From Spirochaetota bacterium (GTDB lineage Bacteria > Spirochaetota > UBA4802 > UBA5550), in NCBI GenBank assembly GCA_963664815.2, contig CAXXHB010000003.1, positions 32,001 to 96,000 on the forward strand: a DNA stretch of 64,000 nucleotides, read 5' to 3'. Numbering within the stretch: position 1 is the stretch's first letter; every line of letters begins with the position of its first letter. A program made the position numbers and the translations under genes. Shown here piece by piece: positions 39,570 through 61,555 of this stretch. Under the pieces are notes generated by a model. The model saw only the letters and a list, made by a program, of their open reading frames with translations. It searched no databases and was not told where the DNA came from.

Positions 39570-41975
39570 TTACTCCTTATCTTCAAGGGGAAGTTTTATA
39601 ATAAAAGTTGTCCCTCTTCCCGGATCACTTTCAAAATATAAAGAACCATGATGTTTTTCAACTATTATTGAATAAGATATGGCAAGACCCTGGCCTGTTC
39701 CCTTACCTACGTCTTTTGTCGTGAAAAATGGATTAAAGATCTTTTCCTTAATTTCAGCGGGAATACCGGTACCGTTATCTTCCACCCTGATAATTGCATG
39801 TGTATTATTACAGCCGGTATATATTTTAATAAGCCCTGAATCAGTTTTATTCTTTTCTTTTGCTTCAACTATTGCATCCTTGGCATTAACTAAAAGATTA
39901 AGGATCACCTGGTTTAATTCCGATTCATAACATGGTACATCAGGAAGAGTTTCATCCAGATTCAGCTGAAGTTCACAATCATATTTCCACTCGTTGCGTG
40001 AAACTGTTACTGTATTTTTAATAGCCTTGTTTATATTTGCCGGCATTTTTGTCCCAGTACCGGGATGGGAGAAGGCTTTCATCGATTGGATTATTCCGGA
40101 GACCTTGGCAACACCCTCCAGTGACTGCTCAAGAGCCTTGGGCATCTGCTCCAGGAGAAACGGGAGCTTTATTTTTTCGCTGAGTTCTTTTGCCTGCCTG
40201 ATTATGCGTGAAAATTCATCTAAATTGACGATTTTAGTATATGCCCTTTCATAAATATCCAGCGTATTAATAAGCCCGATAAATGATTTATTGATGAATT
40301 TAAGATTATCTCCAACATACTGCATAGGTGTGTTTATTTCATGTGCAACACCTGCGGCTAGCTGCCCTATTGCCTCAAGCTTATTAGACTGCAGAAGCTG
40401 GCTTTCAAGAATCTTCTGTTCGGTGAGGTCTTTGCCGAGAATTATAAATCCATCAAGCTTTTCCCCCCCTTTCTTTAATGGATTAATTGTCAGCCCCAGT
40501 ATGCCGTTTTTATTATCCTGTTTGCTGAACTTCAGGTTGTCAATTCTTATGCTTCTGTCTTCAATAATACAGTCGGAAATTCCCTCATAAATAATCTGCC
40601 AGTTCCAGTCAATTGCGGTCTCATAAAACAGTTTCCCGATTATATCAGAAGCATTTATTCCGAAAACCTGTTCTGCGAATGGATTCCAGTGAGTAATCCG
40701 GTCTTTTACTGAAACTCCGATAATAATACTTGAAAGGGAATTAATCAGGATATCCAGCTCCTCATTTATTTTTTTTAGTTCCTTTTCGTTTTCAACCCGA
40801 TCAGTAATATCAACCATTATTCCGACAATACCGGCTGTTTTCCCGTCGGGATTATTATACGTTGTTTTGTTGAAGTGGAAAACACGGGTTATCCCGTCAG
40901 CACATTTTATCTGTGATTCATAAATCTGAATTCCGGGATTATCCAGCAGCTCTTTATCCTTAGCTGTGTAATTCATTGCGAGATCGTGTGGTATTGTTTC
41001 GCCAAGATCAAAAGCGGTTTTATTTATTATTTCTTCACGTGGGAGACCCATTATTAATTCAGCAAATGAGTTATTACACCCCAGGAAGACCCCGTTAACG
41101 TCTTTATAAAAAACCGGATTGCTGATTGTGTTGATTAACGTTTCAAGAAACTGGAGATAATTGTTGAGTTTATCCTCTATTTCGATTTTATCGGTTACAT
41201 CTTCAAGTACACCATCAATCCAGTCCGGATTCCCGGACTCGCTGAAATGACACAACGCGGATATTGATGCCCAGAAAGGTTCTCCGGTAGTTTTTTTAAG
41301 TTTAACAAGATTATTCCGCATTTTTTTAAGCTCAATTATATCTGATCTGAACTCTTTCATTCTATCCATATCAAAAAACAATTCCTGGACAGTTGCCTCC
41401 AGCAGTTCTTCAATTGAATTATAACCAAATATAAGTGCTGCTGATAAATTAGCCTGAAGGATCTGCCCCGGGTTGGAAACAGATATCCTGAATACACCAA
41501 CAGGAAGATTTTCCATAAGTGTTCTATACCGTTCTTCACTTACTTTCAGAGCATTAAAAAGTTTTTTTCTTTCTTTTAAAATTCTGTTTTCATTGATGGC
41601 TCTTTTAATAGCAGGGACAAGGAGGTCAAGGTTATCTTTCAGTATAAAGTCAGTAGCGCCGGATTTAAGCGCTGTGACTGCCATTTCTTCACCAACAGCG
41701 CCTGTAACAAAAATAAAGGGAGTGTCCGGTGATAACTTCTTTGCCGTCTCAAGAGCTTTAAACCCGTCAAATCCCGGCAGATCAATATCAGAGAGTATAA
41801 TGTCCGGAGATAATTTTGTTATTTTTTCAGTAAAAGCTGACCTGTCTGATACCGAGTGGATCTGAAAGTTCAGATCACTGTGATTTAGTATATTCATTAT
41901 CAGTTCTGCATCTTCCTGGGAGTTTTCAATATGCAGAATTTTTTTTGATTCCCCTTTCAGTTTGTTTAACGTCAT
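39570..41975 (-). CDS. Cytoplasmic hybrid kinase REC-PAS-PAS-PAS-HisKA-HATPase
   Basis: N-terminal receiver, [12 protein letters not shown] and [15 protein letters not shown]. Confidence 0.94.
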
Positions 41976-41999
41976 TTATTCATCTCTTCTTTATTTAGT

Positions 42000-42401
42000 T
42001 TACTTATCTGAATAAAAAGATTCAACAATTCTGATAAATTCGGGCAGATTGAGCGGCTTTAAAAAAAAGTAGAGGGGATGTACTTTCATAGCTCTTTCCA
42101 TTAACTCAGGATCAGAATATCCGGTTAAAAAAATTATCTGTACATTATAGCGGGAAGTTTTCATTATTAATTCTGCCGTTTCAATTCCATCCATACTTCC
42201 GGCAAGCCTGATATCAAGAATAACCAGATCCGGTTTTAAGGCGGCAACGGATTCTATCGCTTCTTCACCGGTTGATACGCATGCAAGGACATTGTAGCCG
42301 CGGCGGGAAAAAATTTTCCCCATATACATTGCTGTAACTGCTTCATCCTCTACAATTATTATTGAGATTTCATTCATAACCAGACTCTTTTTTATAAACA
42401 T
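42000..42401 (-). CDS. Single-domain response regulator
   Basis: IVEDE, LDIRLAGSMDGIE and LKP motifs. Confidence 0.9.
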   Translation of the reverse strand: MFIKKSLVMNEISIIIVEDEAVTAMYMGKIFSRRGYNVLACVSTGEEAIESVAALKPDLVILDIRLAGSMDGIETAELIMKTSRYNVQIIFLTGYSDPELMERAMKVHPLYFFLKPLNLPEFIRIVESFYSDK

Positions 42402-42493
42402 TGTATTTAAATTTAATTGTCCATTTTATTAAGATTTTTTCGCCTGAGTTTAATTATACGCTTCAATCGATAATATTTACAATTCAACAGTTA

Positions 42494-44344
42494 TTAAATA
42501 TCCTGATGTTTAAAGTAAATGGAGGTTGTGGTTCCATTTTCACTATTAATTTTTAAATTACCGTCAATCTGCCTTGTGAGTATCGATACAAGCATTAAAC
42601 CCATGCTTGCTGAATCTTCAATATTGAAGTCATCCGGCATGCCTATACCGTCATCTGAAACACTGAGTATTAATAAATCATCTGATTTATGCAGAGACAC
42701 CCTGATCTCCCCATTCATGGTGCCGGGGTATGCATATTTTAATGAGTTTGTAATTAACTCATTAAGGATAAGACCCAATGGTATTAGTCTTTTTAAATCA
42801 AGCTTAACATCATCCAGTGTTGTTATAAGTCTGCCCGTAGTGGAATCAAAGTTATATGTTCTGAATATCGAATCGGTCAGACTTTTTATGTAAACATTCA
42901 GATCAATCCTGTCCAGATTTTTGGAACTATAAAGCTGTTCATATATTGCCGACATGGAATTAATACGCGAAATTGCATCGGCAAATATATTCCGGGCATC
43001 ATCATCCCTGATCTTATCCATGCCGAGGTGCAGCAGGCTGGCTATTATATTCATATTGTTTTTAACCCGGTGCTGAAGCTCCTTCAGCAGGATTTCCTTT
43101 TCACTGATCAGTCTTCGCAGGCTCTCTTCGGCATGTTTCTGGTCAGTTATATCCTGGTTGGCGCCATACCATTTAATAATTTCTCCCATGGAATTTCTGA
43201 TTACCCGCGCAAGAACGGCAATAATGCGTATTTCGCCGTCTCTGCAGATAATGCGGTGTTCAAGGCGTGTAGTATATTCCGGATTCTTATTTTCCAGAGC
43301 TTTGTCTATTTCCTGTTTAACTATAAATGCATCATCAGGGTGAACAAATTCCTTCGCATATTTTTCCATAGGCATTATTAAGCCCTCTATTGCTGCGCTT
43401 GTCCGGTAAATTTTATAGAATTCATCATTAAAAGTAAAACTACCTGTTTTAAAGTCATAGTCCCATGGGCCAAGTTGCGACAGTTCCGCGGCAAGAGAAA
43501 GAATGACCTGGCCTGATTTAATTAACTCCTCGTCAGCCTTTCTTTCTGTGATATCCTGGTTGATCCCGTGAATTTTCTTAAACAGATTATCATGTTCTTT
43601 TTCAACAAACAGCCATACGTTTACCCAGAATTTTTCATGATTTTCACGTAACATCTGTATTTCTATTTGCTCATGAAAATCGGGATCTTCTGACACAATA
43701 GCCTTGGTGATAAAATGCTTGAACTCTGCAGAAGATTCCGGAGCAATATATTTATCCATGAATACTTTCATTGACATTTTATAATCACCGGCATTGCTCA
43801 ACTGTATACCATGCATGTTATAAAACCGTTGATTAAAATAAAAAACACCTGTTGTTATATCCAGTTCCCAGTATGCCATATTTGCTGCCTGCATTGCATC
43901 TTCGTATTTATGATTTAACTGCAGTATTAATTTTTCTGCCTGTTTATTTTCCGTGATATCAGTAACAAAATTGAGAGTTGCGGGTTTCCCGTTCCAGTAG
44001 AAGAGAATAGCGTTAAGCTCAATCCATCGGATTGTTCCGTCTTTATTAATTATTCTGAACTGATAAATGTGGGGAACATAGTCACCTCTGATCCGGCTCA
44101 GATGATTTTCCATAACTATGTTACGATCTTCAGTATAAATAAAGTCGATAAACTGGCGTGAATACATCTCCTCTTTTGTATAACCTGTTAATTTTGTTGT
44201 GGCAGGATTAACATATTTCAGAGTATTATCCTGTGCAATAAATATGGCCTCTTTCGCATTTTCAATCAGCTGCTCATATAACCTGCCGGCTTCAGAGAAA
44301 ATATTTACAGTTGAATTATTTCCGTTTTTTTCTGATTTATCCAT
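42494..44344 (-). CDS. Cytoplasmic PAS sensor kinase, HisKA_2 type
   Basis: Three PAS domains, ELQHRVKNN H-box, NELITNSLKYA and MGLMLV. Confidence 0.93.
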   Translation of the reverse strand: MDKSEKNGNNSTVNIFSEAGRLYEQLIENAKEAIFIAQDNTLKYVNPATTKLTGYTKEEMYSRQFIDFIYTEDRNIVMENHLSRIRGDYVPHIYQFRIINKDGTIRWIELNAILFYWNGKPATLNFVTDITENKQAEKLILQLNHKYEDAMQAANMAYWELDITTGVFYFNQRFYNMHGIQLSNAGDYKMSMKVFMDKYIAPESSAEFKHFITKAIVSEDPDFHEQIEIQMLRENHEKFWVNVWLFVEKEHDNLFKKIHGINQDITERKADEELIKSGQVILSLAAELSQLGPWDYDFKTGSFTFNDEFYKIYRTSAAIEGLIMPMEKYAKEFVHPDDAFIVKQEIDKALENKNPEYTTRLEHRIICRDGEIRIIAVLARVIRNSMGEIIKWYGANQDITDQKHAEESLRRLISEKEILLKELQHRVKNNMNIIASLLHLGMDKIRDDDARNIFADAISRINSMSAIYEQLYSSKNLDRIDLNVYIKSLTDSIFRTYNFDSTTGRLITTLDDVKLDLKRLIPLGLILNELITNSLKYAYPGTMNGEIRVSLHKSDDLLILSVSDDGIGMPDDFNIEDSASMGLMLVSILTRQIDGNLKINSENGTTTSIYFKHQDI

Positions 44345-44618
44345 TTAATTATTCCGGTTTTATAAAAGTGTTTTACACTCTTATAAATATATAATAAGGA
44401 ATATAACCGGAAAAACAAATTATTTGAAAGTAACGGCTGCGAAATTGAAACTAATATAACTGTTTATTTTATGTTAAAATATATGTTAAGGTATTAAGAA
44501 TGAAATTTTGTAAATTTCATTACGTCTGAAAATAACTCTACAGCGCTTTATCATTACATGTTAAATAAATTTAATTGACAGATGTTTTTCTGTAAATATA
44601 GGCTTATGGTATTTTTAA

Positions 44619-46280
44619 ATGGAATTCAAACGCTTGTCCACTCGAATACAGCTATTATTACTTGCTGCACTACTTGCATCTGCTCTCTGCTCAGGCTGCG
44701 GCAAGAAGGAAAAGGATGTCCCGTACGCCTCTGAAGGTGTAATAGATCTGCGCGGCCATGATTTCGGCAGCCGGGGGAGTGCAAGTCTCAGCGGAGACTG
44801 GGAATACTATCCTATGAAACTCCTGTCTCCGGATGATCTGGAAAAACAGGAGAATACCGGCAGCAGGAGATTTGCCCGTATACCCGGCAGATGGAACTCC
44901 GGATGGAGAGTATACTTCCCGTCTTACGCCAGGGGGTTCGCGACATATCGTATCAGGGTCATCACCGGGAAAGTCCATGACGACTATCTCTCTCTGAGAA
45001 TACCAGTAATACAGTCAGCATACAGACTTTATATCAATGGTAAATTAATTCACAGGGAGGGGAATCCCGGAACATCAGCCGGATCTGCTGTTTCGGCTTA
45101 CTCAGACAAGGTTGTGCTGCTTCCCCCTGCAGATGGAGTATATGATATAGTTATTCAGGTTTCAAATTATATTTCCCCCAGCGGAGGGATCACGAGAAGG
45201 CTCAGTATCGGAGAAATGTCATATCTTGCCGATTCACGTCAGATGGAGAATCTCCTCTCTGCATTTCTTGTAAGCGCACTGCTGCTTCTAGGATTGTACC
45301 AGCTGTTAATGTTTTCTTTGCAGCGCGCGGAATTGCGCTACCTCCATTTCGGGATCTTCTGCTGGTGCACTATGATATATTCAATTGGTCTTAATAATTC
45401 CTACTGGTATACTGTTTTCTCTTTTCTGAGCTGGCCGCGCACCTACAGCTGCATGGCGATCGCCATATATATGGGCGGCGCATTTATACTGGCCTACATC
45501 CGGCAGATTTTTTCACCGGATATCCCGCGCAGGATTTTATATGTGACTTTCACTGTTAATACCGCCCTTTCAGCAGTTATGGCGGTTATTCCGGCTGAGT
45601 ATTACGCCTATCTGCTTCCTGTATTACATGCCGACATTGTAATTATAATCATGATGTCTGCATTCTTCATTATGCGCTCATCCTCAAAGTACCGTGAGGA
45701 TGCTGTTTATGTATATCTCGGGCTTGCTATTTATGCGCTGACAACTGTGTTTGACATATTATCTGCGGCAGGAATTGCACCTGGCTTTCCTAAGACGGCC
45801 CAATGGGGAATTCTTGTTATATGCATTATCCAGGTTGTCGGCATGTCCCGGTATTTTATAAAGGCCCGTCACAGGTCTCTTCATCTTGCCGTAGATAACG
45901 AAAAACTCAGGTCTCTGCTCGCCGGGAGGATGAACGAGGGACAGTATTCAATCACTGAGAGTATAGAAGGTAAAATAAATACTGCCATAGCATACCTGCA
46001 TGAGAACTTTAAAGATGATATTTCAAGGGAAAACCTTGCAGCTGCGCTTGAACTTCACCCGGACAGCTTCAGCCGCTACTTCAGGCTTCATACCGGCAGG
46101 AAATACAGTGAATACATAAATGAACTGCGAATTAAAGAGGCAATCCGTCTCATCAGTGAAACTGATGACTCAATAATATCTATTGCGATGAATGTCGGTT
46201 ACAACAGTCTTCGCACATTCAACCACTCTTTTCTTTCCATTACCGGGCGTACACCTGGTGATTTCCGCAAGGCTCAGTAG
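44619..46280 (+). CDS. Membrane one-component regulator: extracellular sensor + 7TM-DISM-like + AraC HTH
   Basis: Lipobox-like CSGC, LSGDWEYY..ATYRIRV beta domain, about 7 TM segments, and IAMNVGYNSLRTFNHSF..TGRTP. Confidence 0.88.
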   Translation: MEFKRLSTRIQLLLLAALLASALCSGCGKKEKDVPYASEGVIDLRGHDFGSRGSASLSGDWEYYPMKLLSPDDLEKQENTGSRRFARIPGRWNSGWRVYFPSYARGFATYRIRVITGKVHDDYLSLRIPVIQSAYRLYINGKLIHREGNPGTSAGSAVSAYSDKVVLLPPADGVYDIVIQVSNYISPSGGITRRLSIGEMSYLADSRQMENLLSAFLVSALLLLGLYQLLMFSLQRAELRYLHFGIFCWCTMIYSIGLNNSYWYTVFSFLSWPRTYSCMAIAIYMGGAFILAYIRQIFSPDIPRRILYVTFTVNTALSAVMAVIPAEYYAYLLPVLHADIVIIIMMSAFFIMRSSSKYREDAVYVYLGLAIYALTTVFDILSAAGIAPGFPKTAQWGILVICIIQVVGMSRYFIKARHRSLHLAVDNEKLRSLLAGRMNEGQYSITESIEGKINTAIAYLHENFKDDISRENLAAALELHPDSFSRYFRLHTGRKYSEYINELRIKEAIRLISETDDSIISIAMNVGYNSLRTFNHSFLSITGRTPGDFRKAQ

Positions 46281-49160: not shown

Positions 49161-50156
49161 ATGAAAAAGGCACGTTATATATTTCTTGCTGTGGGAATAA
49201 TTCTTCTTGTTTTACTATTTGCAGTTTTCGGAATTAAAAAACCGGTTATGCAGATTATTGATTTCGGCTGGAGATTCTGGATATGCGTGCTGATATACAT
49301 GTTCAATCAGCTTCTGCTCACCTATGGCTGGATGGTTCTTATTACTTATCCATTGAAGGCCCGTCAATATTTTGATGTTCTTCTGGCAAGAATTGCGGGA
49401 GATTCAACTACAACTATAAACACAGCAGCCGGAATAGCCGGCGATGCGTTAAAGGCAATGTATTTAAAGGACGTTGTTCCCTTTAAAATAGGGTTCGCAT
49501 CTGTTGTAATGGACAGAACAATCCACATGGCGGGAAACACGTTGCTGATTCTCACGGGATTGTTTGTAGGTTTTTTTAAACTCAATATGCCCTTCTATGT
49601 CCTTGCGGGAATTTTTTTATTTTTCTCGGTTTTTATGGGGCTTTTGATATATATAATGAAGAAACAGAAGGATGGATTTATAAAATACGGTATATCAATG
49701 CTTCCGGTAAAATTCAGAGAAAAGATTTATGCATCTGAAAGCAGAAAAGAGAAGATAAATAATATTGATCAGGAGATCAGCTTTATTTTCAACAGCAGGG
49801 AAAATCTCAATCATTTCTGGATATCTCTCTGTATGCATACACTCCCTGTTATGGCGGCCGGCACGTTTGAGATTTTCATTATAATGTATTATGCGGGGGG
49901 GAGCGCAACAATACTCGATGCAATGTTCGTTTACCTGTTTGGACTTTTTATTGCGGCTGCGGCATTCTTTGTGCCGCTTAATATAGGTACAAGCGAGGGT
50001 TCTTACTCAATGGTACTGGCGTTTCTGGGTTATGATCCGGTTCTCGGATTAACTGTAGGTATTATCCGCCGCCTGAGAGCGCTGGTGTGGTCTGGTATCG
50101 GGTTGTTGCTTCTTTTCCATAAAGGACTTACGGGGAAGGACGCGGGAATTGAATAG
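49161..50156 (+). CDS. LPG_synthase_TM / YbhN-family flippase-like membrane protein
   Basis: GIAGDALKA, SVVMDR, FFVPLNIGTSEG and IIRRLR; multi-TM. Confidence 0.82.
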   Translation: MKKARYIFLAVGIILLVLLFAVFGIKKPVMQIIDFGWRFWICVLIYMFNQLLLTYGWMVLITYPLKARQYFDVLLARIAGDSTTTINTAAGIAGDALKAMYLKDVVPFKIGFASVVMDRTIHMAGNTLLILTGLFVGFFKLNMPFYVLAGIFLFFSVFMGLLIYIMKKQKDGFIKYGISMLPVKFREKIYASESRKEKINNIDQEISFIFNSRENLNHFWISLCMHTLPVMAAGTFEIFIIMYYAGGSATILDAMFVYLFGLFIAAAAFFVPLNIGTSEGSYSMVLAFLGYDPVLGLTVGIIRRLRALVWSGIGLLLLFHKGLTGKDAGIE

Positions 50157-50180
50157 AATAATAAAAAACGGATGGAATAA

Positions 50181-51848
50181 ATGAAGAGAGTACAACCGCT
50201 ATCTGACAGAATTGAACAGATGAAAGAGCCGCTGTTTTTGTTTTTTCTTTTTATAACAACACTGATATTCAGACTGCCGACTTTATTTAATGATTTCTAT
50301 GATGTGGACGAACTTGCTGCGATTGTCCAGACAAAAGAATTCCTCGCGGGATTCAAACCTGGAATTGATTTTTCAGAAAGCAAACTTCCCCTTTTTCATA
50401 CAATATATAAATTCTCCTATGGCATCAATGCTGCGTATGGATGGGTAATAGTTCATGCTGTAACAATTATTATTGTTTTCCTTACGGCACTTTCAGTCTA
50501 TTATATCGGCAGAGTGGTACGTGACCGGAGGACCGGTATTATAGCATCAATAATGTATGCTGTTCTTATCTCCTCTTTCAACAGGCATTTTATGGCGACA
50601 AACGGGGAGGTGATATATAATCTCCCGATCACGGCCGGGTTGCTCTTTTTTATTTTAATGATTAAAAACCGGTCCTGGTATTTAAGAATGCTTTATTCTG
50701 CTTTTATATTCATTGCTGTATACGCAGCAATGAATATTAAGGTTCATGGGGTAATACTGCTTTTATTTATTGCTTTCTTCATTATTCTGTATATCCCATA
50801 TTACCGTAATATTTTATCGCGAAGGATTTTACCATACATGGTAACAGCGGCGGTTGTTTTACTTGTTTTTACCATTGATTATTTTATAACAAAGAAATTT
50901 GCCTCCGGGATGATAAGCAGACTGCTGAATCTTTTGTTTTATGCCACATCAGATCGCAGCAGTAATCCACTTTTCCTGATCGGAGTATACACATACAGGC
51001 AGTTGACGCTTGGATTATGGCATATGGTTCTATGGGTACCGGCAGCGGTGTACATGTACAGGTTTGTCCGCAGCAGATTCAGGAGAGATACAATAGAGGA
51101 ATCGGCTGTGGCTATTTTTGCGCTGATTACCTTTCTTATGGTTTTCGCCGGGGGCGCCCGGCTTTATTACCACTATTTTATGACGACGTATCCTTCACTA
51201 TGTGTTATCGCTGCCATTGCGCTGGTTGCTGCTGATTCTTCTGCGGTTAAGAAAATCTATTCAAACATTACAATCGCTTTTTTAATTCCGGGATTGTTTT
51301 TTCTTTCATGGAATATTAAGGATATATATATTAAGTATTATAACCGGGAACTTTTTTATAATGAACCAGCGCCGCTTTTCTGGTTTCGTGCTGTTGTTGT
51401 AAGCTCGATGGATGACTATTTGCTGCCGAACGGCATTTATGTAAATACCGTTGAGTATATAAAAAACAGCACAAAACCTGATGAAACAATATTTGTCTGG
51501 GGTGATGGTCCGCATCTTTATTATTTCTCAGACCGGAGAATAGCAATACATCATGTATGGCCGAAAGGTATAGCATTAAGGATAGAACGGCTTTACAGGG
51601 AAAACAGTACCGGATCTTTATCTGAAGCTGAGATACTGGAGAATGGGTTTATCGTAAATATGGAAAGTAAAAAGCCGGCTCTGTTTATTGATACCTCGCC
51701 TAAAGGGCTTCACCGTGGCATAACAAGGTTCGGCAGTTTCGCCATGTATCCCTGCAAAGTTCCACCTCTTATGAAAAAGTATCTTGATGATCATTACCGG
51801 CTTGAAAAGGTAGTTGATGATTACAGAATATACCGGCGCGTCAGATAA
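50181..51848 (+). CDS. GT-C fold (ArnT/PMT-like) membrane glycosyltransferase
   Basis: DVDE after TM1, KLPL, ATNGE, YYHYF and PDETIFVWG. Confidence 0.82.
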   Translation: MKRVQPLSDRIEQMKEPLFLFFLFITTLIFRLPTLFNDFYDVDELAAIVQTKEFLAGFKPGIDFSESKLPLFHTIYKFSYGINAAYGWVIVHAVTIIIVFLTALSVYYIGRVVRDRRTGIIASIMYAVLISSFNRHFMATNGEVIYNLPITAGLLFFILMIKNRSWYLRMLYSAFIFIAVYAAMNIKVHGVILLLFIAFFIILYIPYYRNILSRRILPYMVTAAVVLLVFTIDYFITKKFASGMISRLLNLLFYATSDRSSNPLFLIGVYTYRQLTLGLWHMVLWVPAAVYMYRFVRSRFRRDTIEESAVAIFALITFLMVFAGGARLYYHYFMTTYPSLCVIAAIALVAADSSAVKKIYSNITIAFLIPGLFFLSWNIKDIYIKYYNRELFYNEPAPLFWFRAVVVSSMDDYLLPNGIYVNTVEYIKNSTKPDETIFVWGDGPHLYYFSDRRIAIHHVWPKGIALRIERLYRENSTGSLSEAEILENGFIVNMESKKPALFIDTSPKGLHRGITRFGSFAMYPCKVPPLMKKYLDDHYRLEKVVDDYRIYRRVR

Positions 51849-51874: not shown

Positions 51875-54825
<2,951 letters not shown>

Positions 54826-54839
54826 TTTATTCTCCTCTG

Positions 54840-56138
54840 CTACTTTGTTCCCGGGATAAGTTCAAGAATTTCTTTTATAGGCATACAGACAGAATCCGCT
54901 TCCTTTGACCTCTCATTTTCCAGAATCATTTTTGCAGTGCTGAACATTGCCGGATAGGATGACCTCAGCATATGGTTGGCATATATAATAATATTGGCAC
55001 CCCATGAATGAAGTTCGGTTTCAGTGAACTGGTTATATGTGGTGGGTACAAGAACAATCGGAATTGAAGTGTAATCTTTTCTGAACCTTAAACAGAATTC
55101 TTTTATATCATTGCCGGACTTTTCCTTGCTGTGGATCATGATGCCGTCGGCTCCGGCATGTACATAGGCCGCCGCTCTTTCAAGAGCGTCATCAACAGTT
55201 TTTCCGGCTATCAGGCTTTCAAGCCTGGCAATAATCATAAAATCAGCAGTTACCTGAGCTTTTTTCCCCGCACTTATTTTCTCGCAGAATTCAGGGATTG
55301 AGGCGAGGTTCTGTTCAACATCCGTTCCGAAAAGTGAATTTTTTTTAAGCCCCACTTTGTCTTCGATTATAACTGCGGAGACTCCGTTGCGTTCAAGAGT
55401 ACGGACTGTAAAAACGAAGTGTTCGGGAATGCCCCCTGTATCACCGTCAAAAATAATAGGTTTTGTTGTACACTCAAGGATATTTGTCAGATCCTGTAAT
55501 CTTGTAGTAAGATCAACAGCCTCTATGTCAGGTTTCCCCTTGCTGGTTGAATCAGTTAAACTGGAAGACCACATGCCGTCATAATGATGTATCCCGTCCT
55601 CTTTTTCTATTTCAATATTTTCAACTATAAGTCCTGACAGGCCGGAGTGTGCTTCCATAATCCTTACAATCTTTTTTGCGTGAATAAGGCGGCGTAGTGC
55701 TTTGAGGCGTATATCAGGAGTGGTGCCTATCGATTTTTGTGCTTCATGAAGCATCGAAGAGGTAATCCCGTGAGTATAGGGAATTTCTATTACGTCACCG
55801 CCGATCTGTTTCATGACTTCAAGAACGTCATCGCGTACCCTGCTTAACGGGCCGCTTTTCCAGTCGTCTCCGTGAATGATTGCATCCGGCCTGTATTTCA
55901 GAAGATTAGGGACATAACTCCATTCCTCCTGAGGTACAATAGTATCCACCCCTTTAATGTTTTCAACAACCGTTTTACGCTGTTCATATGTGAGGAAGGG
56001 GAGGCGCTTGTGTGAAGCTATTGCTGAATCAGTTAACAGGCCCGCCATTACCTTTCCGTGTTTTGACGCTTCATTGATAATATTGATTATTCCGGGGTGG
56101 ATGATATCGCCGGTTAAACCAAGATATATGGTTTTCAT
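54840..56138 (-). CDS. aepX: Phosphoenolpyruvate mutase with an N-terminal cytidylyltransferase-like domain
   Basis: Diagnostic EDKVGLKKNS (EDKX5NS), DGDTG and IYANH. N-terminal domain has HGDDW. Confidence 0.97.
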   Translation of the reverse strand: MKTIYLGLTGDIIHPGIINIINEASKHGKVMAGLLTDSAIASHKRLPFLTYEQRKTVVENIKGVDTIVPQEEWSYVPNLLKYRPDAIIHGDDWKSGPLSRVRDDVLEVMKQIGGDVIEIPYTHGITSSMLHEAQKSIGTTPDIRLKALRRLIHAKKIVRIMEAHSGLSGLIVENIEIEKEDGIHHYDGMWSSSLTDSTSKGKPDIEAVDLTTRLQDLTNILECTTKPIIFDGDTGGIPEHFVFTVRTLERNGVSAVIIEDKVGLKKNSLFGTDVEQNLASIPEFCEKISAGKKAQVTADFMIIARLESLIAGKTVDDALERAAAYVHAGADGIMIHSKEKSGNDIKEFCLRFRKDYTSIPIVLVPTTYNQFTETELHSWGANIIIYANHMLRSSYPAMFSTAKMILENERSKEADSVCMPIKEILELIPGTK

Positions 56139-56503
56139 AGTTTCTCCTTTTTTATAATGCAGTAAGGTTGCTTTAATCCCATAAAATATGCCATATCCCT
56201 GTGAAGAATAAAAAATGCCGTGGCTGCCTGTTCCTGTTTAATGATTCAGAGTTCAATATAACAGATCGGTTCACGGTGTTTTCACTGAGACTGATATAAT
56301 CTATTTGATTAAATTGCAACAATAATGAATTATAACAATCACCATCAGGTAACAGGGGCAATTTATTATATCAGTCAATTAATTAAAAGTTTTTTTTAAA
56401 AAGTCTCTTTTTTTTAAGAAACGTTTCAGGTAAATTTAACCGCAGGGTTTTCTGTTAATAATGCAGAGTGCTAATATTATTGACAAAATTTAAACAGGGT
56501 TTT

Positions 56504-56551
56504 CTCTATCATAAAGAAGAGATTTTTTAAAATCACTTCTTTATGATAGAG
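56504..56551. promoter_or_regulatory. 48-bp near-perfect palindrome in the divergent promoter region
   Basis: CTCTATCATAAAGAAGAGATTTT-TT-AAAATCACTTCTTTATGATAGAG: 23-bp arms with one mismatch; TTGACA at 56480. Confidence 0.65.
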
Positions 56552-56608
56552 CCCCGGAGTTTAATGCAGAGAGCAGAGCACTGTAAGTATTATGCATGAG
56601 GTGTAAAT

Positions 56609-57295
56609 TTGAATATTTTATATATGATTTTTTTCTATCCTATTGAACTCCTGATGGAGTTCCTGATGAGTAATATTTTTTTGTTTGTCGGTTCATACGG
56701 TGTATCTTTGATTTTGACGAGCCTGTCTATAAATATAGTAATGATTCCGGTTTTCTGGTATGCGGAAAAACTTCAGCAGCGGGAACGCGACATTCAGGCG
56801 GCAATGAGACCGAAAATTCAGGAATACAAGAGCGTTTTTAAAGGGTATGAACTGCATCTGTATATAACCAACCTCCATAAGCAGCACAACTACCATCCGG
56901 TATATGCACTGAGGTCATTACTCGGCTTATTTATCCAGGTACCTTTTTTTGTTGCGACTTATAATTTTTTATCTCATTACAAGGCTGTAGAGGGAGTTTC
57001 TTTCCTGTTTTTCTTGGATCTTGGAAAACCGGATATGCTTCTTTCCATGTTCAGTTATAGTATAAATATATTGCCATTTATAATGACAGCCGTTAATCTT
57101 GTATCAAGTTTTGTCTATGGTAAAATGCTTACAAAAGCGGAAAGAATCAATATATATGTTATAGCTCTGTTTTTTCTTGTGCTGTTGTATAAATCTCCGT
57201 CCGGTCTGCTGCTCTACTGGACCTGTAATAATATTTTCAGTCTGTTTAAAAGTATAGTGTTTGTAAAGCAGCTTCAAAAAAAATCTGACGCATAA
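56609..57295 (+). CDS. Short YidC/Oxa1-family paralogue
   Basis: YGVSLI, coiled hairpin (MRPKIQE), HPV..L..LFIQVPFF, FLDLGKPD, ILPFIM and PSGLLLYWTCNNIFS; TTG start after GAGGTG. Confidence 0.88.
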   Translation: MNILYMIFFYPIELLMEFLMSNIFLFVGSYGVSLILTSLSINIVMIPVFWYAEKLQQRERDIQAAMRPKIQEYKSVFKGYELHLYITNLHKQHNYHPVYALRSLLGLFIQVPFFVATYNFLSHYKAVEGVSFLFFLDLGKPDMLLSMFSYSINILPFIMTAVNLVSSFVYGKMLTKAERINIYVIALFFLVLLYKSPSGLLLYWTCNNIFSLFKSIVFVKQLQKKSDA

Positions 57296-57311
57296 TGTAA
57301 CGGGGTTAAAT

Positions 57312-58604
57312 ATGTTAACAATTACAGCCGTTTTCTTTTTATATTTTCTGCTTGTCGGCGCTAATGCCTATGCCTACCTGGATCCCGGTTCAGGGAGTAT
57401 GCTTATTTCCGCTCTTGTTGCCATGGTGACAATTTTAATCTACATGGTAAAGAGTTTTATATATGACAAGGTGAAGGTTCTCGGGAAAAAAAGCGATCTG
57501 CCTGATCTGAAAAGAGAATACAATGTTGTGGTATACTCGGAAGGGGGGCAGTACTGGAATGTTTTTCTTCCTTTACTTCAGGAACTTGAATCAAGAGGTG
57601 AGTCTGCCGTATATTTTACCAGCAGGCAGGATGATCCCGGTCTGCAGCAGGAATTTGAACATATAGAAAAAAAATACATAGGTGAAGGAAATAATGCATT
57701 CTTTGTTCTGAACAAACTCAGGGCGAATTTTGTCATCATGACAACTCCCGGTCTTGGAGTACTCCAGATTAAAAGGAGCAGGGGGGTAAAACACTATTGC
57801 CATATAACACATTCCGCCGGCACCTGCTCAAGCTACAAGGCCTTTTCTCTCGATTATTTTGACAGCGTACTTGTCGGCGGTACTGCCGATAAAAATATTA
57901 TAGCCGAACTGGAAGAAAAAAGAAGAACCCCCAAAAAACAGGTTGAGATAATCGGCTGCAGCTATCTTGACGTGTTACGTACAAAACTTAAAAACGGCAG
58001 TTACAGTTACAATCTTTTCGCTGAAAAGAAACCTACAATTCTGATCTCTCCCACATGGGGAGAACATGGCCTGCTGAGCAAATACGGCAGAGATCTCTTG
58101 AAGACACTTTCAGAATGCAGAGATTTTAATATAATAGTAAGACCTCATCCGCAATCCTTTGTATCGGAAAAAAAACTGATGGATGAGTTATTAAGCAGTT
58201 ATCCGGACAGTGACAGCTTAAAGTGGGATTCTGAAAAGGATGGATTAAAGGCGATGTTCCATGCTGACCTGATGGTAAGTGATTTTTCAGGGATAATATA
58301 CGATTATCTTTTCCTCTTTGAACGCCCGGTGCTTACTTTCAAGGCGCAGTTTGAAAAACGTGGAAGAGAGGCCATGGACTTGAAGGATGACTCACCCGAT
58401 ATTAAGTTTCTTGATAAAATAGGCAGAACGCTTCAGGAAACGGATATATCTGATTTAATAACGATTATAAAAAAGAGTCTGTCTGACAGGAGTGCGCTGC
58501 CTGATGTAATTAAAGAGGCTAAGGAAGCGCTTACACAGTTTCCCGGCGAATCGGGTAAGCGTGCTGTTGATTTCATTCAGTCTGTATTGAACAGTAAAAA
58601 ATAA
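57312..58604 (+). CDS. TagF/TagB-like CDP-glycerol glycerophosphotransferase-family protein with signal + YLDPG membrane anchor
   Basis: ANAYA-YLDPGSGSMLISALVA, ISPTWG, RPHP and ADLMVSDFSGIIYDY. Confidence 0.85.
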   Translation: MLTITAVFFLYFLLVGANAYAYLDPGSGSMLISALVAMVTILIYMVKSFIYDKVKVLGKKSDLPDLKREYNVVVYSEGGQYWNVFLPLLQELESRGESAVYFTSRQDDPGLQQEFEHIEKKYIGEGNNAFFVLNKLRANFVIMTTPGLGVLQIKRSRGVKHYCHITHSAGTCSSYKAFSLDYFDSVLVGGTADKNIIAELEEKRRTPKKQVEIIGCSYLDVLRTKLKNGSYSYNLFAEKKPTILISPTWGEHGLLSKYGRDLLKTLSECRDFNIIVRPHPQSFVSEKKLMDELLSSYPDSDSLKWDSEKDGLKAMFHADLMVSDFSGIIYDYLFLFERPVLTFKAQFEKRGREAMDLKDDSPDIKFLDKIGRTLQETDISDLITIIKKSLSDRSALPDVIKEAKEALTQFPGESGKRAVDFIQSVLNSKK

Positions 58605-58617
58605 TAAGGCAGCAGTT

Positions 58618-60411
58618 ATGATAAACAGAAATCCGCTTTTCATTAAAATTGATATGAGTATAAAAAGATTTATGCAGAGAGATTTAACAGTTTTTTTCAC
58701 GAACTCATTATTCTTTACAGGCCTGCTGTTAATCTATTCACTTGGATGTTCTTATCTTCTTCCACAGGGGGTAAATGCACATTTTGCCTCAATTTTATTG
58801 ATAGTTCTTTCCGGGATTTTTCTGCTTTTTGTGCTGATTTTTTCAGGCTGGCGTTTTCTTACACGGAAAATGTCTTATGCATATAATAAAAAATACGAGC
58901 CGTTTAAGACAGCAGACTTTATTTTCATATTGATCCCGATGACACCGGTTATGCAGTATATTCTGTCAAACCAGGATTCTCTGACTATGTTCAGCTCGTC
59001 TTTAATCTTTATAATCTTTGGAGTAACTATTGCCATATTCGGTATTGTTATTCCGGTACTGCTGTCACGTTTTGCTTTTAAAAAGGTGTTAATAACAGCA
59101 TCTGTCAGTTTTCTTTACATGATAATGAGTATGGCGTCTCTTGCGGCAGCCAATGGGTGGAGCGGGAAGGGAATAATCAGTATTCAAATTGTGATCCTCC
59201 TGATCGTTATTCTTGTTTTATCGTTACTGAGATTTATTCCTGAAAAAATTATTATAATTGCCATTGTTGTCTTTTTTACTGTAAACACAGTTACCGGAGT
59301 TTTATTTAAAAAATCAGAAGGTGGAGAGTCTGAAACGGTTAAGAATTTTTCTGTAATGTCTGCTCTTGAAGGGAAGAGGGTTAAAAAGCATAATGATGTT
59401 CTGCTGATAGTATATGAATCTTATCCCAATTATGAAACCTTAAAGCATTACGGTTTTGAAAACAGTGAACAGCTTGCATTTCTGGAATCAAATGGTTTCC
59501 GTATTTATAATGGAGTATATTCTCTCGGGATACCCACAGAACAGTCCATGTCGAGAGTTTTTAATGTCGAGCTGGATCTGAAAGAACATAAAAAGTACCT
59601 GGCAGGGGGTGGGGCTGTTCACAGTATTCTCAGAGGACAGGGATATAAAACATATGGTGTTTTTGACAACAGCTGGAATTTAAGAGGGCTCCCCATTGAC
59701 CAGATTAAATATGATAACTGTTTTCCAAGACCTTCCGGCGTTATGGATAGTAAGGTGCTTGTGAATGCAATATTTACAGGAGAGTTCAGCGATGCCGTGA
59801 GTTTTGAAGGGGTGGATTACAACTCATATATAGATCACAAGCATAAAGTAATTAAAAAGGAATATCCCTGCCCGGTTTTTATGTACTCACACAGCAGTTT
59901 TCCCGGTCATGGTCCCAGCGGTATGGGGATGAGACTTGAAGAGAGGGAGGGGAAGATAGCCGGACATCTTGAAGGCATCCAAAAAGCGAACGTTGAGATG
60001 AAACAGGATGTGGATGTAATAATAAAAAGTAATCCCGACGCTATTGTTGTTATAGCAGGGGATCATGGACCGTTTCTGACAAAAACAGGTTATGGTTTAA
60101 GCAAGGGACGGGGAGGTTTCAGCGCAGAGGATATCGACAGATATGATATCCAGGACAGGTTCGGGTCATTCCTTGCAATAAGATGGCCTGAAAAAAAATA
60201 TGCGGAAAAGTATGATATTAAGGTCTTTCAGGATATATTTCCGGCAATTTTTTCATACCTCTATGATGATGATTCGATATTTAATAAAATCAGGATTGAG
60301 AGAGTAACGAGAGAAATCAAGCGGATACTGGGTGTTTATGTAAAAGACGGGGTCATATATGGAGGTAAAGACAACGGGCAGAAACTCTTTTTAATGGAAC
60401 AGAAAAAATAA
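58618..60411 (+). CDS. Membrane-anchored alkaline-phosphatase-superfamily (LtaS/EptA/sulfatase-like) protein
   Basis: About 7 N-terminal TM segments, then LLIVYESY, PTEQSM (candidate Thr nucleophile), HSSFPGH and IAGDHG. Confidence 0.8.
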   Translation: MINRNPLFIKIDMSIKRFMQRDLTVFFTNSLFFTGLLLIYSLGCSYLLPQGVNAHFASILLIVLSGIFLLFVLIFSGWRFLTRKMSYAYNKKYEPFKTADFIFILIPMTPVMQYILSNQDSLTMFSSSLIFIIFGVTIAIFGIVIPVLLSRFAFKKVLITASVSFLYMIMSMASLAAANGWSGKGIISIQIVILLIVILVLSLLRFIPEKIIIIAIVVFFTVNTVTGVLFKKSEGGESETVKNFSVMSALEGKRVKKHNDVLLIVYESYPNYETLKHYGFENSEQLAFLESNGFRIYNGVYSLGIPTEQSMSRVFNVELDLKEHKKYLAGGGAVHSILRGQGYKTYGVFDNSWNLRGLPIDQIKYDNCFPRPSGVMDSKVLVNAIFTGEFSDAVSFEGVDYNSYIDHKHKVIKKEYPCPVFMYSHSSFPGHGPSGMGMRLEEREGKIAGHLEGIQKANVEMKQDVDVIIKSNPDAIVVIAGDHGPFLTKTGYGLSKGRGGFSAEDIDRYDIQDRFGSFLAIRWPEKKYAEKYDIKVFQDIFPAIFSYLYDDDSIFNKIRIERVTREIKRILGVYVKDGVIYGGKDNGQKLFLMEQKK

Positions 60412-60718
60412 AAGTTCAGACGAATGCCTGGTCATTACATCCGGTTTACAGAAAACTTTCCCGCAGAAAAGAGGAACAGTAAACTTCACGATCTTTCAGG
60501 TAATATTTTTTCAGGTTGTATTATGCAGTGTTATATCACACCGGTTTTAATACCTCAAAAATAAAAATATTCTCCATTATTATTAATTCACTTAAAGATA
60601 TACTTGATTTTTCGGTAATATAGGGCGATAATCATACTGAATATCCGGATTTATCGTTTAATGACTCTGATTTATTCCCGGTATCATAAACATAATCCGG
60701 CTAAATGGAAGGGGGAAT

Positions 60719-61555
60719 ATGAAACGCATTATTACATTTGCGGTTATGATCGCTGCAGCTTTTACTCTCGCTTTTACTCTCTATGGGGAAACCCAGCCTG
60801 AACTTATGGTCTTTACAAGGCCCGCCTGCGGGAGGTGTACTTATACTGTCGATTTCCTTAAAAAAAATAATATTAAATATACTGAATATTCAACATCGGA
60901 AACTGAAAACAGAACAAAGATGTGGGAAATCGTCCGCGCATCGGGGAAATATAAAAACGGTTCAATAAGCATGCCTGTTGTTGTTATAAAAGGGGAGGTA
61001 TTTATTAATATCCCTGACATGCAGGAGTTTACAGGATCAATCGCTTCGTTGATTGCCGGCAGGAGTACCCCGGTTATCGAAGGAGAAAATAAAACGGATT
61101 CTTCCGATCCATTTATTAATAGCATAAGAGAAAGGCATAACTATTACAGGAAAAACCATAATACTCCCGGTTTAAAATGGAATCCTGTCATTCAGCAGTA
61201 TGCGCAGGCATGGGCGGATAAACTTGCAGCTGAAGACAGAATGTATCACCGTCAACCGAATAAATATGGTGAAAATATATACTGGATCTCCGGCGGGGAG
61301 GTGGATGGCAGCTCTGTTGTTGACAGCTGGTATTCCGAAATAAAGTATTATAACTATAAAAACCCGGGTTTCGGAATGTCCACCGGACATTTTACCCAGG
61401 TAGTATGGAGCGGGTCAACCGAACTGGGATGCGGCAAATCCAGGTCAAAAAGGGGCGGAACATATGTGGTATGCAACTATAATCCTCCGGGGAATTATAT
61501 GGGGATGTTTGATAAAAATGTATTACCAGTAAGCGATAAGAGAAGTGGTAATTGA
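60719..61555 (+). CDS. Secreted glutaredoxin-like (CxxC) + CAP/SCP (PR-1/GAPR-1-like) fusion protein
   Basis: Signal peptide, CGRC, SMPVV cis-Pro, then HNYYR..H, GENI, WYSE, GHFTQVVW and VVCNYNPPGN. Confidence 0.88.
   Translation: MKRIITFAVMIAAAFTLAFTLYGETQPELMVFTRPACGRCTYTVDFLKKNNIKYTEYSTSETENRTKMWEIVRASGKYKNGSISMPVVVIKGEVFINIPDMQEFTGSIASLIAGRSTPVIEGENKTDSSDPFINSIRERHNYYRKNHNTPGLKWNPVIQQYAQAWADKLAAEDRMYHRQPNKYGENIYWISGGEVDGSSVVDSWYSEIKYYNYKNPGFGMSTGHFTQVVWSGSTELGCGKSRSKRGGTYVVCNYNPPGNYMGMFDKNVLPVSDKRSGN

Follow-up and report, generated by a model that had tools for sequence, protein, structure and literature searches.

A spirochaete YidC-like protein without the groove arginine and its clade, linked to two candidate envelope-modifying enzymes

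The YidC-like gene and its operon

We have analysed a stretch of 64,000 nucleotides (nt), hereafter the window, from a Spirochaetota bacterium of the UBA5550 lineage (GenBank assembly GCA_963664815.2, contig CAXXHB010000003.1, positions 32,001 to 96,000), with the focus on a short yidC-like gene that we call YidCL and on the genes that accompany it. YidCL (56609..57295, plus strand) is an intact open reading frame of 228 codons with a TTG start, preceded at 5 nt by a Shine-Dalgarno-like GAGGTG (56598..56603, plus strand) found by direct reading of the sequence. The form listed in the protein collection (P0001, 100% identical) has 223 amino acids (aa), as if translation began at Met6, whereas close relatives keep the longer N-terminus MNI(L/F), i.e., MNIL or MNIF. 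YidCL is the first gene of a tight operon. The second, TagFL (57312..58604, plus strand), begins 16 nt past it and encodes a 430-aa TagF-like phosphotransferase (PF04464), and the third, M597 (58618..60411, plus strand), begins 13 nt past TagFL and encodes a 597-aa polytopic membrane protein, while a set of phosphonate genes runs divergently. A first-pass annotation, made from the sequence alone, had described YidCL as a minimal and specialised YidC paralogue that lacks the conserved arginine of the hydrophilic groove and is either dedicated to one client or repurposed as a lipid scramblase or carrier.

The family assignment is clear at the level of the domain. YidCL matches PF02096 (60KD_IMP) with 77.8 bits against a cut-off of 35, from residue 30 to 218 and over profile positions 1-161 of 163, and it barely passes the core-domain model TIGR03592 (85.4 against 84.3). 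For each of the 15 equivalog models of full-length YidC that were listed, on the other hand, its score is far below the cut-off, the best of them being NF002355 (76.6 vs 891). The protein consists of a core of five transmembrane (TM) helices, the first two of which are joined by a cytoplasmic helical hairpin, plus an N-terminal helix. The AlphaFold2 model, made with 32 relatives in the alignment (pLDDT 89.2, pTM 0.81), has helices at residues 30-76, 79-92, 97-122, 155-171, 176-192, and 198-227; its best Foldseek match is the Bacillus halodurans YidC structure 3wo7_A (TM-score 0.71, rmsd 3.2, E 2.5e-8), with further matches to Escherichia coli YidC (6al2 and 3wvf), and we are confident that the predicted structure is a YidC fold. 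The reading frame, the coverage of PF02096 and the fold model agree with the earlier description of a 228-aa protein devoid of the periplasmic P1 domain.

With the housekeeping proteins YidC, SpoIIIJ, and YidC2 (3WO6 and 3WO7; for E. coli 3WVF and 6AL2) YidCL shares PF02096, the five-TM core and the cytoplasmic hairpin and, in sequence, Pro47, the Gln of 'IQxPFF', a D-L-x-x-P-D loop and the YW...N motif of the last helix. It differs from them in having neither a P1 domain nor a lipoprotein signal, in lying outside the yidD-yidC-jag-mnmE neighbourhood, in belonging to a clade whose members are usually fused to an enzyme, and in being only 16-26% identical to the housekeeping copy of its own genome. 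That copy is easily recognized. The genome (three contigs, 5.2 Mb) contains exactly two PF02096 matches, and the second, on another contig (199.8 bits), is an ordinary YidC of 551 aa with a long periplasmic domain that reads 'VLTKIVFMPL', with Lys at the groove position. As judged from translations read by eye, it is flanked by a yidD-like frame and by jag- and mnmE-like frames; the canonical context, from which the first-pass annotation had noted YidCL to be absent, belongs to this other copy, and YidCL is not the only YidC of its genome. In five of five other carrier genomes checked we found the same arrangement, one housekeeping YidC (119-224 bits) and from one to four members of the YidCL clade (82-98 bits). 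In the case of Treponema putidum (the genome of locus L013) there are four fused copies of ca. 900 aa (L086, L091, L092, and L093) on one contig within ca. 11 kb; a fifth, partial PF02096 match (L094, 38.5 bits) is found elsewhere in that genome. Across six genomes the YidCL paralogues are 37-51% identical, while the housekeeping cores are 20-50% identical, mostly 20-37%.

The clade and its groove

A scan of one genome per species gave at least 665 pattern matches, of which at least 645 encode a relative of YidCL. They come from at least six phyla and include Treponema, Brachyspira, Sutterella, and gut Firmicutes. A search for proteins of near length returned 79 protein clusters. We kept 78 loci, and the alignment used for all residue counts is composed of these and the window protein (79 sequences). 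In public records members of the clade are named ‘YidC/Oxa1 family membrane protein insertase’, ‘inner membrane protein’ or ‘hypothetical protein’. In a FastTree phylogeny the 79 sequences separated from six housekeeping cores with a support of 98, and the window protein grouped with four standalone genes of uncultured Leptospirales-type spirochaetes with a support of 100; these values are local and SH-like only, and one housekeeping row sits on a very long branch. We also observed that L014, L016, and L018, from records labelled Odoribacter, Bulleidia, and Desulfovibrio, have nearly identical YidC-like sequences (end branches 0.016-0.054), which suggests that the gene was recently exchanged between gut bacteria or that contigs were binned wrongly.

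When YidCL was compared by phmmer with the sequences of the PDB, its first core helix aligned without gaps, with 'slsinivmipv' falling on 'tilirlallpl' of B. halodurans YidC2 and on 'tfivrgimypl' of E. coli YidC. Because the alignment is gapless, Asn42 (codon 56732..56734, plus strand) corresponds to E. coli residue 366 and to the groove arginine of B. halodurans YidC2. The absence of this arginine was borne out, and it extends to the whole clade: position 42 is N in 37 sequences, S in 21, T in 18, and G, Q, and C in one each, with neither R nor K in any of the 79. Thus, the centre of the groove is Arg or Lys in housekeeping YidC (five of our six copies have K or R) and N, S or T in 76 of the 79 YidCL clade members. 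According to the abstract of PMC8920935, this positive charge at the centre is strictly conserved in every homologue. The sixth housekeeping protein, a YidC of 286 aa from an Erysipelothrix-type genome (L085), reads Asp at the groove position with Lys three residues further on, which may be an alignment shift on its very long branch.

The clade has a basic residue of its own. Arg102 (codon 56912..56914, plus strand) lies in an insertion of three residues where core TM2 begins on the cytoplasmic side, is R in 76 and K in 3 of the 79 sequences, and faces a gap or Gly-Gly in the housekeeping proteins; we place it, by prediction, at the cytoplasmic mouth of the groove. A further clade-specific insertion, of four residues, is found in the cytoplasmic hairpin. 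Eleven positions are invariant in the 79 sequences (S38, P47, Y95, P112, D142, P156, T160, Y194, Y203, W204, and N207), and the groove is predicted to be polar, uncharged, and open, lined by S38, N42, Q110, T160, Y203, W204, T205, and N207. This degree of conservation leaves very little room for a decaying or functionless yidC duplicate that has lost a key residue. The missing arginine and the very low scores against full-length YidC equivalog models are what such a duplicate might look like, but the frame is intact and preceded by a Shine-Dalgarno-like sequence, the fold model is confident, the clade occupies at least 645 loci in species genomes with these 11 positions unchanged, and it is more conserved than the housekeeping core across the same genomes. 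We have rejected the pseudogene reading on the conservation data and give it almost no credence. The separate clade, the lack of R or K at position 42 in all 79 sequences and the conserved gene context instead bear out the proposal of a specialised paralogue, in agreement between the PF02096 alignment and the phylogeny against housekeeping YidC.

What the loss of the charge means for function is less straightforward, and here the first of three functional explanations has to be considered, namely that YidCL is a dedicated insertase or assembly chaperone that serves only its own partners, either an M597-type polytopic block or the N-out tail and helix of TagFL. The YidC fold is complete and still has its cytoplasmic hairpin. 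Besides, E. coli YidC is reported to manage without the positive charge when an aromatic or hydrophilic residue occupies position 517 (Chen et al., 2022; PMC8920935, abstract), and the equivalent of E. coli Tyr517 by ungapped alignment is the invariant Trp204 (codon 57218..57220, plus strand). The groove of the clade stays hydrophilic, with N, S or T at position 42 beside this aromatic Trp, and in E. coli such conditions make the arginine dispensable according to the same abstract. The observation of the first-pass annotation stands, but the loss of the arginine by itself is weaker evidence against insertase activity than was earlier assumed.

The context that we consider decisive lay outside the first-pass annotation: the TagF-like and putative EptA/LtaS-like operon partners, the divergent genes for an activated phosphonate and, in most relatives, a fusion of the module to the phosphotransferase. 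The YidC-like module (ca. 220 residues) forms the N-terminal part of a protein of at least 550 aa in 63 of the 78 loci; 13 are standalone genes (at least one of them cut by a contig end) and two are truncated. In all seven fused proteins that were scanned a Sulfatase match comes after PF02096 (over the cut-off in six), and among the long relatives listed PF02096 was present in 120 of 120, 42 of which also carry PF00884. None of the 120 listed carries PF04464, and a direct YidC-TagF fusion was thus not seen among them. There are intermediate arrangements as well. In three loci (L010, L012, and L022) a single protein of ca. 1000 aa combines a TagF-like with an M597-like part. In L012 and L022 it comes directly after a standalone YidCL; in L010 it lies two genes upstream, and YidCL is followed there by a second TagF-like fusion. 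The window locus represents the fully split, three-gene form. Averaged over all pairs of 59 full-length fusions, the identity is 52% for the YidC-like part, 22.5% for the TM block that comes next and 32% for the catalytic domain. For a dedicated insertase this is the opposite of what would be expected from a chaperone that tracks a divergent client. Moreover, every genome checked already has a housekeeping YidC, each of up to six transferase paralogues per genome has its own fused copy instead of sharing one, and a module fused at the N-terminus must itself be inserted before it can help. In favour of this explanation, the clade is tightly linked to membrane-protein partners.

Partner enzymes and donor genes

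TagFL matches PF04464 through its catalytic half (residues 182-349, 40 bits, cut-off 22.1) and none of the NCBIfam models. Its N-terminus is peculiar. A hydrophobic stretch ending in AYA, a putative cleavable signal peptide, is followed by the motif YLDPGSGS (57375..57398, plus strand) and then by a TM helix. The motif, in the form Y-[LI]-D-P-G-[ST]-G-[SG] and with the TM helix after it, was found in 51 of 51 aligned TagFL proteins, and a YLDPGSGS-type motif has a single six-frame match in the 5.2-Mb genome. The likeness of TagFL to TagF, TagB, and TarF (PF04464) is that of the catalytic half and of a location beside genes for a cytidylyl-activated donor, and the invariant N-terminal motif and helix set it apart; we know of no canonical TagF protein with such a motif. 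The donor would probably be cytidine monophosphate-activated 2-aminoethylphosphonate (CMP-AEP), not CDP-glycerol. The short Asp-bearing tail followed by a TM helix with which TagFL starts would suit a dedicated insertase, since it resembles the Pf3 coat and procoat proteins, the classic YidC-only substrates. Yet the invariance of the motif in all 51 proteins points to a lasting function and not to a transient insertion signal, and on balance we consider the dedicated insertase unlikely, although it deserves more attention than the other alternatives.

The association between YidCL and TagFL goes beyond the window. A TagF-like homologue is present within the fetched DNA in 59 of the 78 loci, many of the others being short contigs, and the two genes are adjacent in five of five close relatives. 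We also searched 401 genomes sampled across the phylum of the window with both proteins as queries (E 1e-25 or better): 73 of the 84 carrier genomes had both, 9 had matches only to the YidCL query, 2 only to TagFL, and 317 genomes had neither. At least four of the nine YidCL-only matches are frames of 509-613 aa at 31-34% identity, probably housekeeping YidC, and the two genomes with only TagFL are 86% and 79% complete. Neither gene was found in G315, a complete one-contig genome of the same genus, so that the module is accessory. The copy numbers are unequal, with up to six YidCL and only one or two TagFL per genome (6:1 in G156 and 5:1 in G135).

These data could also be explained by a docking scaffold, in which the YidC fold is an adaptor that holds TagFL, by its YLDPGSGS-helix or through the hairpin, next to an outward-facing transferase, and the groove passes nothing. 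In its favour, conservation is very high in the YidCL module as well as in the N-terminal motif of TagFL, no second copy of the motif occurs in the genome, a single TagFL for several YidCL fusions fits a common interface, and the hairpin has the clade-specific four-residue insertion and conserved charged residues. However, invariant residues align with groove-lining sites (S38, N42, Q110, Y203, W204, and N207) and not with the hairpin alone, the interaction between YidCL and TagFL is itself putative, and a scaffold leaves unexplained how a cytoplasmic product would reach an extracytoplasmic active site. We regard pure docking as rather improbable.

The third protein, M597, is more difficult to classify. 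It has about seven hydrophobic segments followed by a soluble domain, it matched nothing in Pfam at E 0.1 or below, and a profile of its relatives gave nothing significant against the PDB sequences, the best relevant match being alkaline phosphatase at E 0.66. PF00884 is precomputed for relatives that are 53-60% identical to it, and PF02096 for three distant ones (P0155-P0157, 795-850 aa). Conserved in 32 of 32 relatives are E/D267, S/T302, T/S307, H431, and D482-H483, a pattern that we take to be that of the phosphotransferases of the alkaline-phosphatase superfamily. The fusion L026 (Neptunomonas) is 29% identical to M597, and its model, built with a 45-row alignment, is of low confidence (mean pLDDT 66.1, pTM 0.55), with a confident YidC-like part and a TM block mostly below 60; the best Foldseek match of this low-confidence model (pLDDT 66) is EptA (5fgn, E 1.8e-6), followed by MCR-1, EptC, PbgA, and LtaS. 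M597 thus appears to be a divergent EptA/LtaS-like phosphotransferase, with a catalytic domain that would be extracytoplasmic according to its predicted topology. A polytopic block plus a sulfatase-type domain is what M597 and the C-terminal two-thirds of its fused relatives appear to share with EptA, MCR-1 and EptC, LtaS, and PbgA (YejM), together with a conserved acidic metal ligand, the Ser/Thr, the His, and the Asp-His pair. Unlike that class, M597 is too divergent to be recognized by Pfam or by profile against the PDB, and to our knowledge the solved enzymes of the EptA/LtaS type neither contain a YidC-like module nor depend on a TagF-like partner. The prediction of a complex between YidCL and M597 scored 0.00 in two runs without folded controls, and speaks neither for nor against binding.

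The divergent genes upstream provide the likely head group. They encode, all on the minus strand, a cytidylyltransferase-like domain fused to phosphoenolpyruvate (PEP) mutase (54840..56138; TIGR02320, 412.5 vs 319.55; PF01467, 40 bits), a phosphonopyruvate decarboxylase (53719..54825; TIGR03297, 403.1 bits vs 312.5), and a 615-aa fusion of an NTP_transf_3 nucleotidyltransferase to a class-V aminotransferase (51875..53722; PF12804, 38.3 bits, and PF00266, 74.7 bits). A 2-aminoethylphosphonate set is therefore present, with the Ppm and Ppd equivalogs above their cut-offs plus the aminotransferase and the nucleotidyltransferase. Since the gene set is as described by Rice et al. (2019; PMC6697681, accessible text), the 615-aa protein would be a PntC-AEP transaminase fusion that makes CMP-AEP. 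With the pathway described there the window shares Ppm, Ppd, AEP transaminase, and nucleotidyltransferase, clustered with cell-surface genes, and CMP-AEP neighbourhoods were reported in Treponema denticola and others. But the neighbours described in that text are LicD-like phosphotransferases or glycosyltransferases, while here the candidates are the TagF-like, YidC-like, and EptA-like trio; its accessible text has no mention of YidC, insertase, glycerophosphotransferase or sulfatase, and the text of PMC8942020 mentions neither YidC nor insertase.

The donor-making genes vary from locus to locus while the YidC-like module stays. Among the neighbour families at the loci we counted CT-Ppm (16), Ppd (14), LicC-choline kinase (4), TagD-like (5), and IspD-like (4), plus glycosyltransferases. 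A different gene is found beside the standalone YidC-like gene of L009 (8657-11683), encoding a 1009-aa protein with nucleotidyltransferase, PPDK_N, and PEP-utilising domains, which may be another route of head-group activation.

A putative head-group relay

The explanation we favour, albeit with slightly less than even confidence, is that YidCL is no second general insertase but the dedicated receiver or translocation module of a three-part system for head-group decoration. TagFL, anchored by its N-out helix, would move a CMP-activated head group onto a membrane-bound acceptor in the inner leaflet, probably a lipid. The head group would be aminoethylphosphonate in the window, and phosphocholine, glycerol-phosphate or ribitol-phosphate elsewhere. 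The YidC-like module would be the conserved receiver, whose polar groove with Arg102 would pass the head group across the bilayer and/or dock TagFL, and the alkaline-phosphatase-type domain would then put the head group on the final envelope acceptor outside, as EptA and LtaS do. The idea of a common receiver, which would recognise what TagFL delivers and is joined to variable output enzymes that differ in their acceptors, comes from the fact that the module is the most conserved part and each paralogue keeps a copy, that one TagFL serves several of them, and that the catalytic and TM blocks diverge. Passage and docking are inseparable on the present data within the relay, and the tentative standing we give it applies to the two jointly.

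The following considerations led us to prefer the relay. With a CMP-dependent transferase in the cytoplasm and an EptA/LtaS-type enzyme that faces outwards, something must carry the head group across. EptA and LtaS draw their head groups from membrane lipids, phosphatidylethanolamine in the case of EptA and phosphatidylglycerol in that of LtaS. The use of such lipid donors, together with the scrambling of glycerophospholipids by proteins of the YidC fold, is why a relay is favoured. In a preprint (Li et al., 10.1101/2023.09.01.555937), glycerophospholipids were scrambled by E. coli YidC and further members of the Oxa1 family both in vitro and in simulations, and YidC, Oxa1, and Get1 were active in proteoliposomes. 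The fold with a membrane-exposed hydrophilic groove is common to those proteins and to YidCL, but scrambling is a side activity of general insertases in that work and would be the dedicated job of the YidCL module.

A number of points weigh against the relay. The passage of lipid or head group through YidCL is a prediction, and the lipid product of such a system would be a putative intermediate. Bacterial membranes already flip ordinary phospholipids, so that the need for a dedicated scramblase is not obvious, and TagF-family enzymes normally use polymer or lipid-linked glycan acceptors. The cytoplasmic hairpin, which real insertases need, is retained and highly conserved in YidCL. The L026 model is poor in the TM block and silent on the packing of the modules, and the genomes sampled for co-occurrence are related, which means that the counts overstate the number of independent events. 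Finally, the loss of charge would be compatible with insertase activity, Trp204 being located where an aromatic residue makes the arginine dispensable in E. coli (PMC8920935, abstract). The most specific version of the relay is that a YidC fold has been turned into a head-group translocase, the donor lipid being built inside, flipped through the uncharged groove and its head group harvested outside, independently of LicD and in hundreds of species; this we consider possible but doubtful.

The surroundings of the operon offered little on its control. Rfam gave zero matches over the whole window, and the 470-nt divergent intergenic region is without a known riboswitch or leader, while in a promoter and terminator scan of 56100-60800 the counts were no higher than in shuffles. 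There is an inverted repeat at 56504-56551, 57 nt upstream of YidCL, with arms of 23 nt that are 96% complementary and separated by 2 nt. Upstream of the four closest relatives this sequence is not retained, although two of them have other long palindromes there. Past the phosphonate genes (49161-51848) lie genes for a 331-aa LPG_synthase_TM (flippase-like) protein and for a 555-aa protein with a weak match to PMT_2, a GT-C glycosyltransferase family (21.8 bits, under the cut-off of 26.1). A PMT_2-like gene adjoins the cluster in L005 and L006 too, and these two kinds of protein might take part in making or altering the acceptor that becomes decorated. Immediately after the operon (60719-61555) comes a gene for a 278-aa protein with glutaredoxin and CAP (cysteine-rich secretory protein) domains, an unusual pairing. 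Further upstream, the region 39570-46280 encodes two PAS-rich histidine kinases, one of which is of the hybrid type and includes a receiver domain, as well as a membrane sensor of the 7TMR-DISM kind joined to an AraC-type helix-turn-helix domain.

A search of the literature by titles and abstracts, with subscription journals and supplements outside its scope, retrieved no description of a YidC-like protein joined to, or associated with, enzymes of the TagF-like or sulfatase type. New here are the split three-gene form with its CMP-AEP donor set, Arg102, the N-terminal motif of TagFL, and the genome-wide figures for co-occurrence and copy number. YidC and Oxa1 are textbook insertases, and what we describe is a large clade without the central charge that is tied to two candidate envelope-modifying enzymes; the public label ‘membrane protein insertase YidC’ is probably misleading for its members. 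The split form provides parts that can be expressed separately. If the relay is true, it would be the first natural case in which the scramblase ability of the YidC fold is a selected function, and it would represent an undescribed pathway that places phosphonate, phosphocholine or polyol-phosphate groups on bacterial surfaces, where such groups affect host recognition and resistance to cationic peptides.

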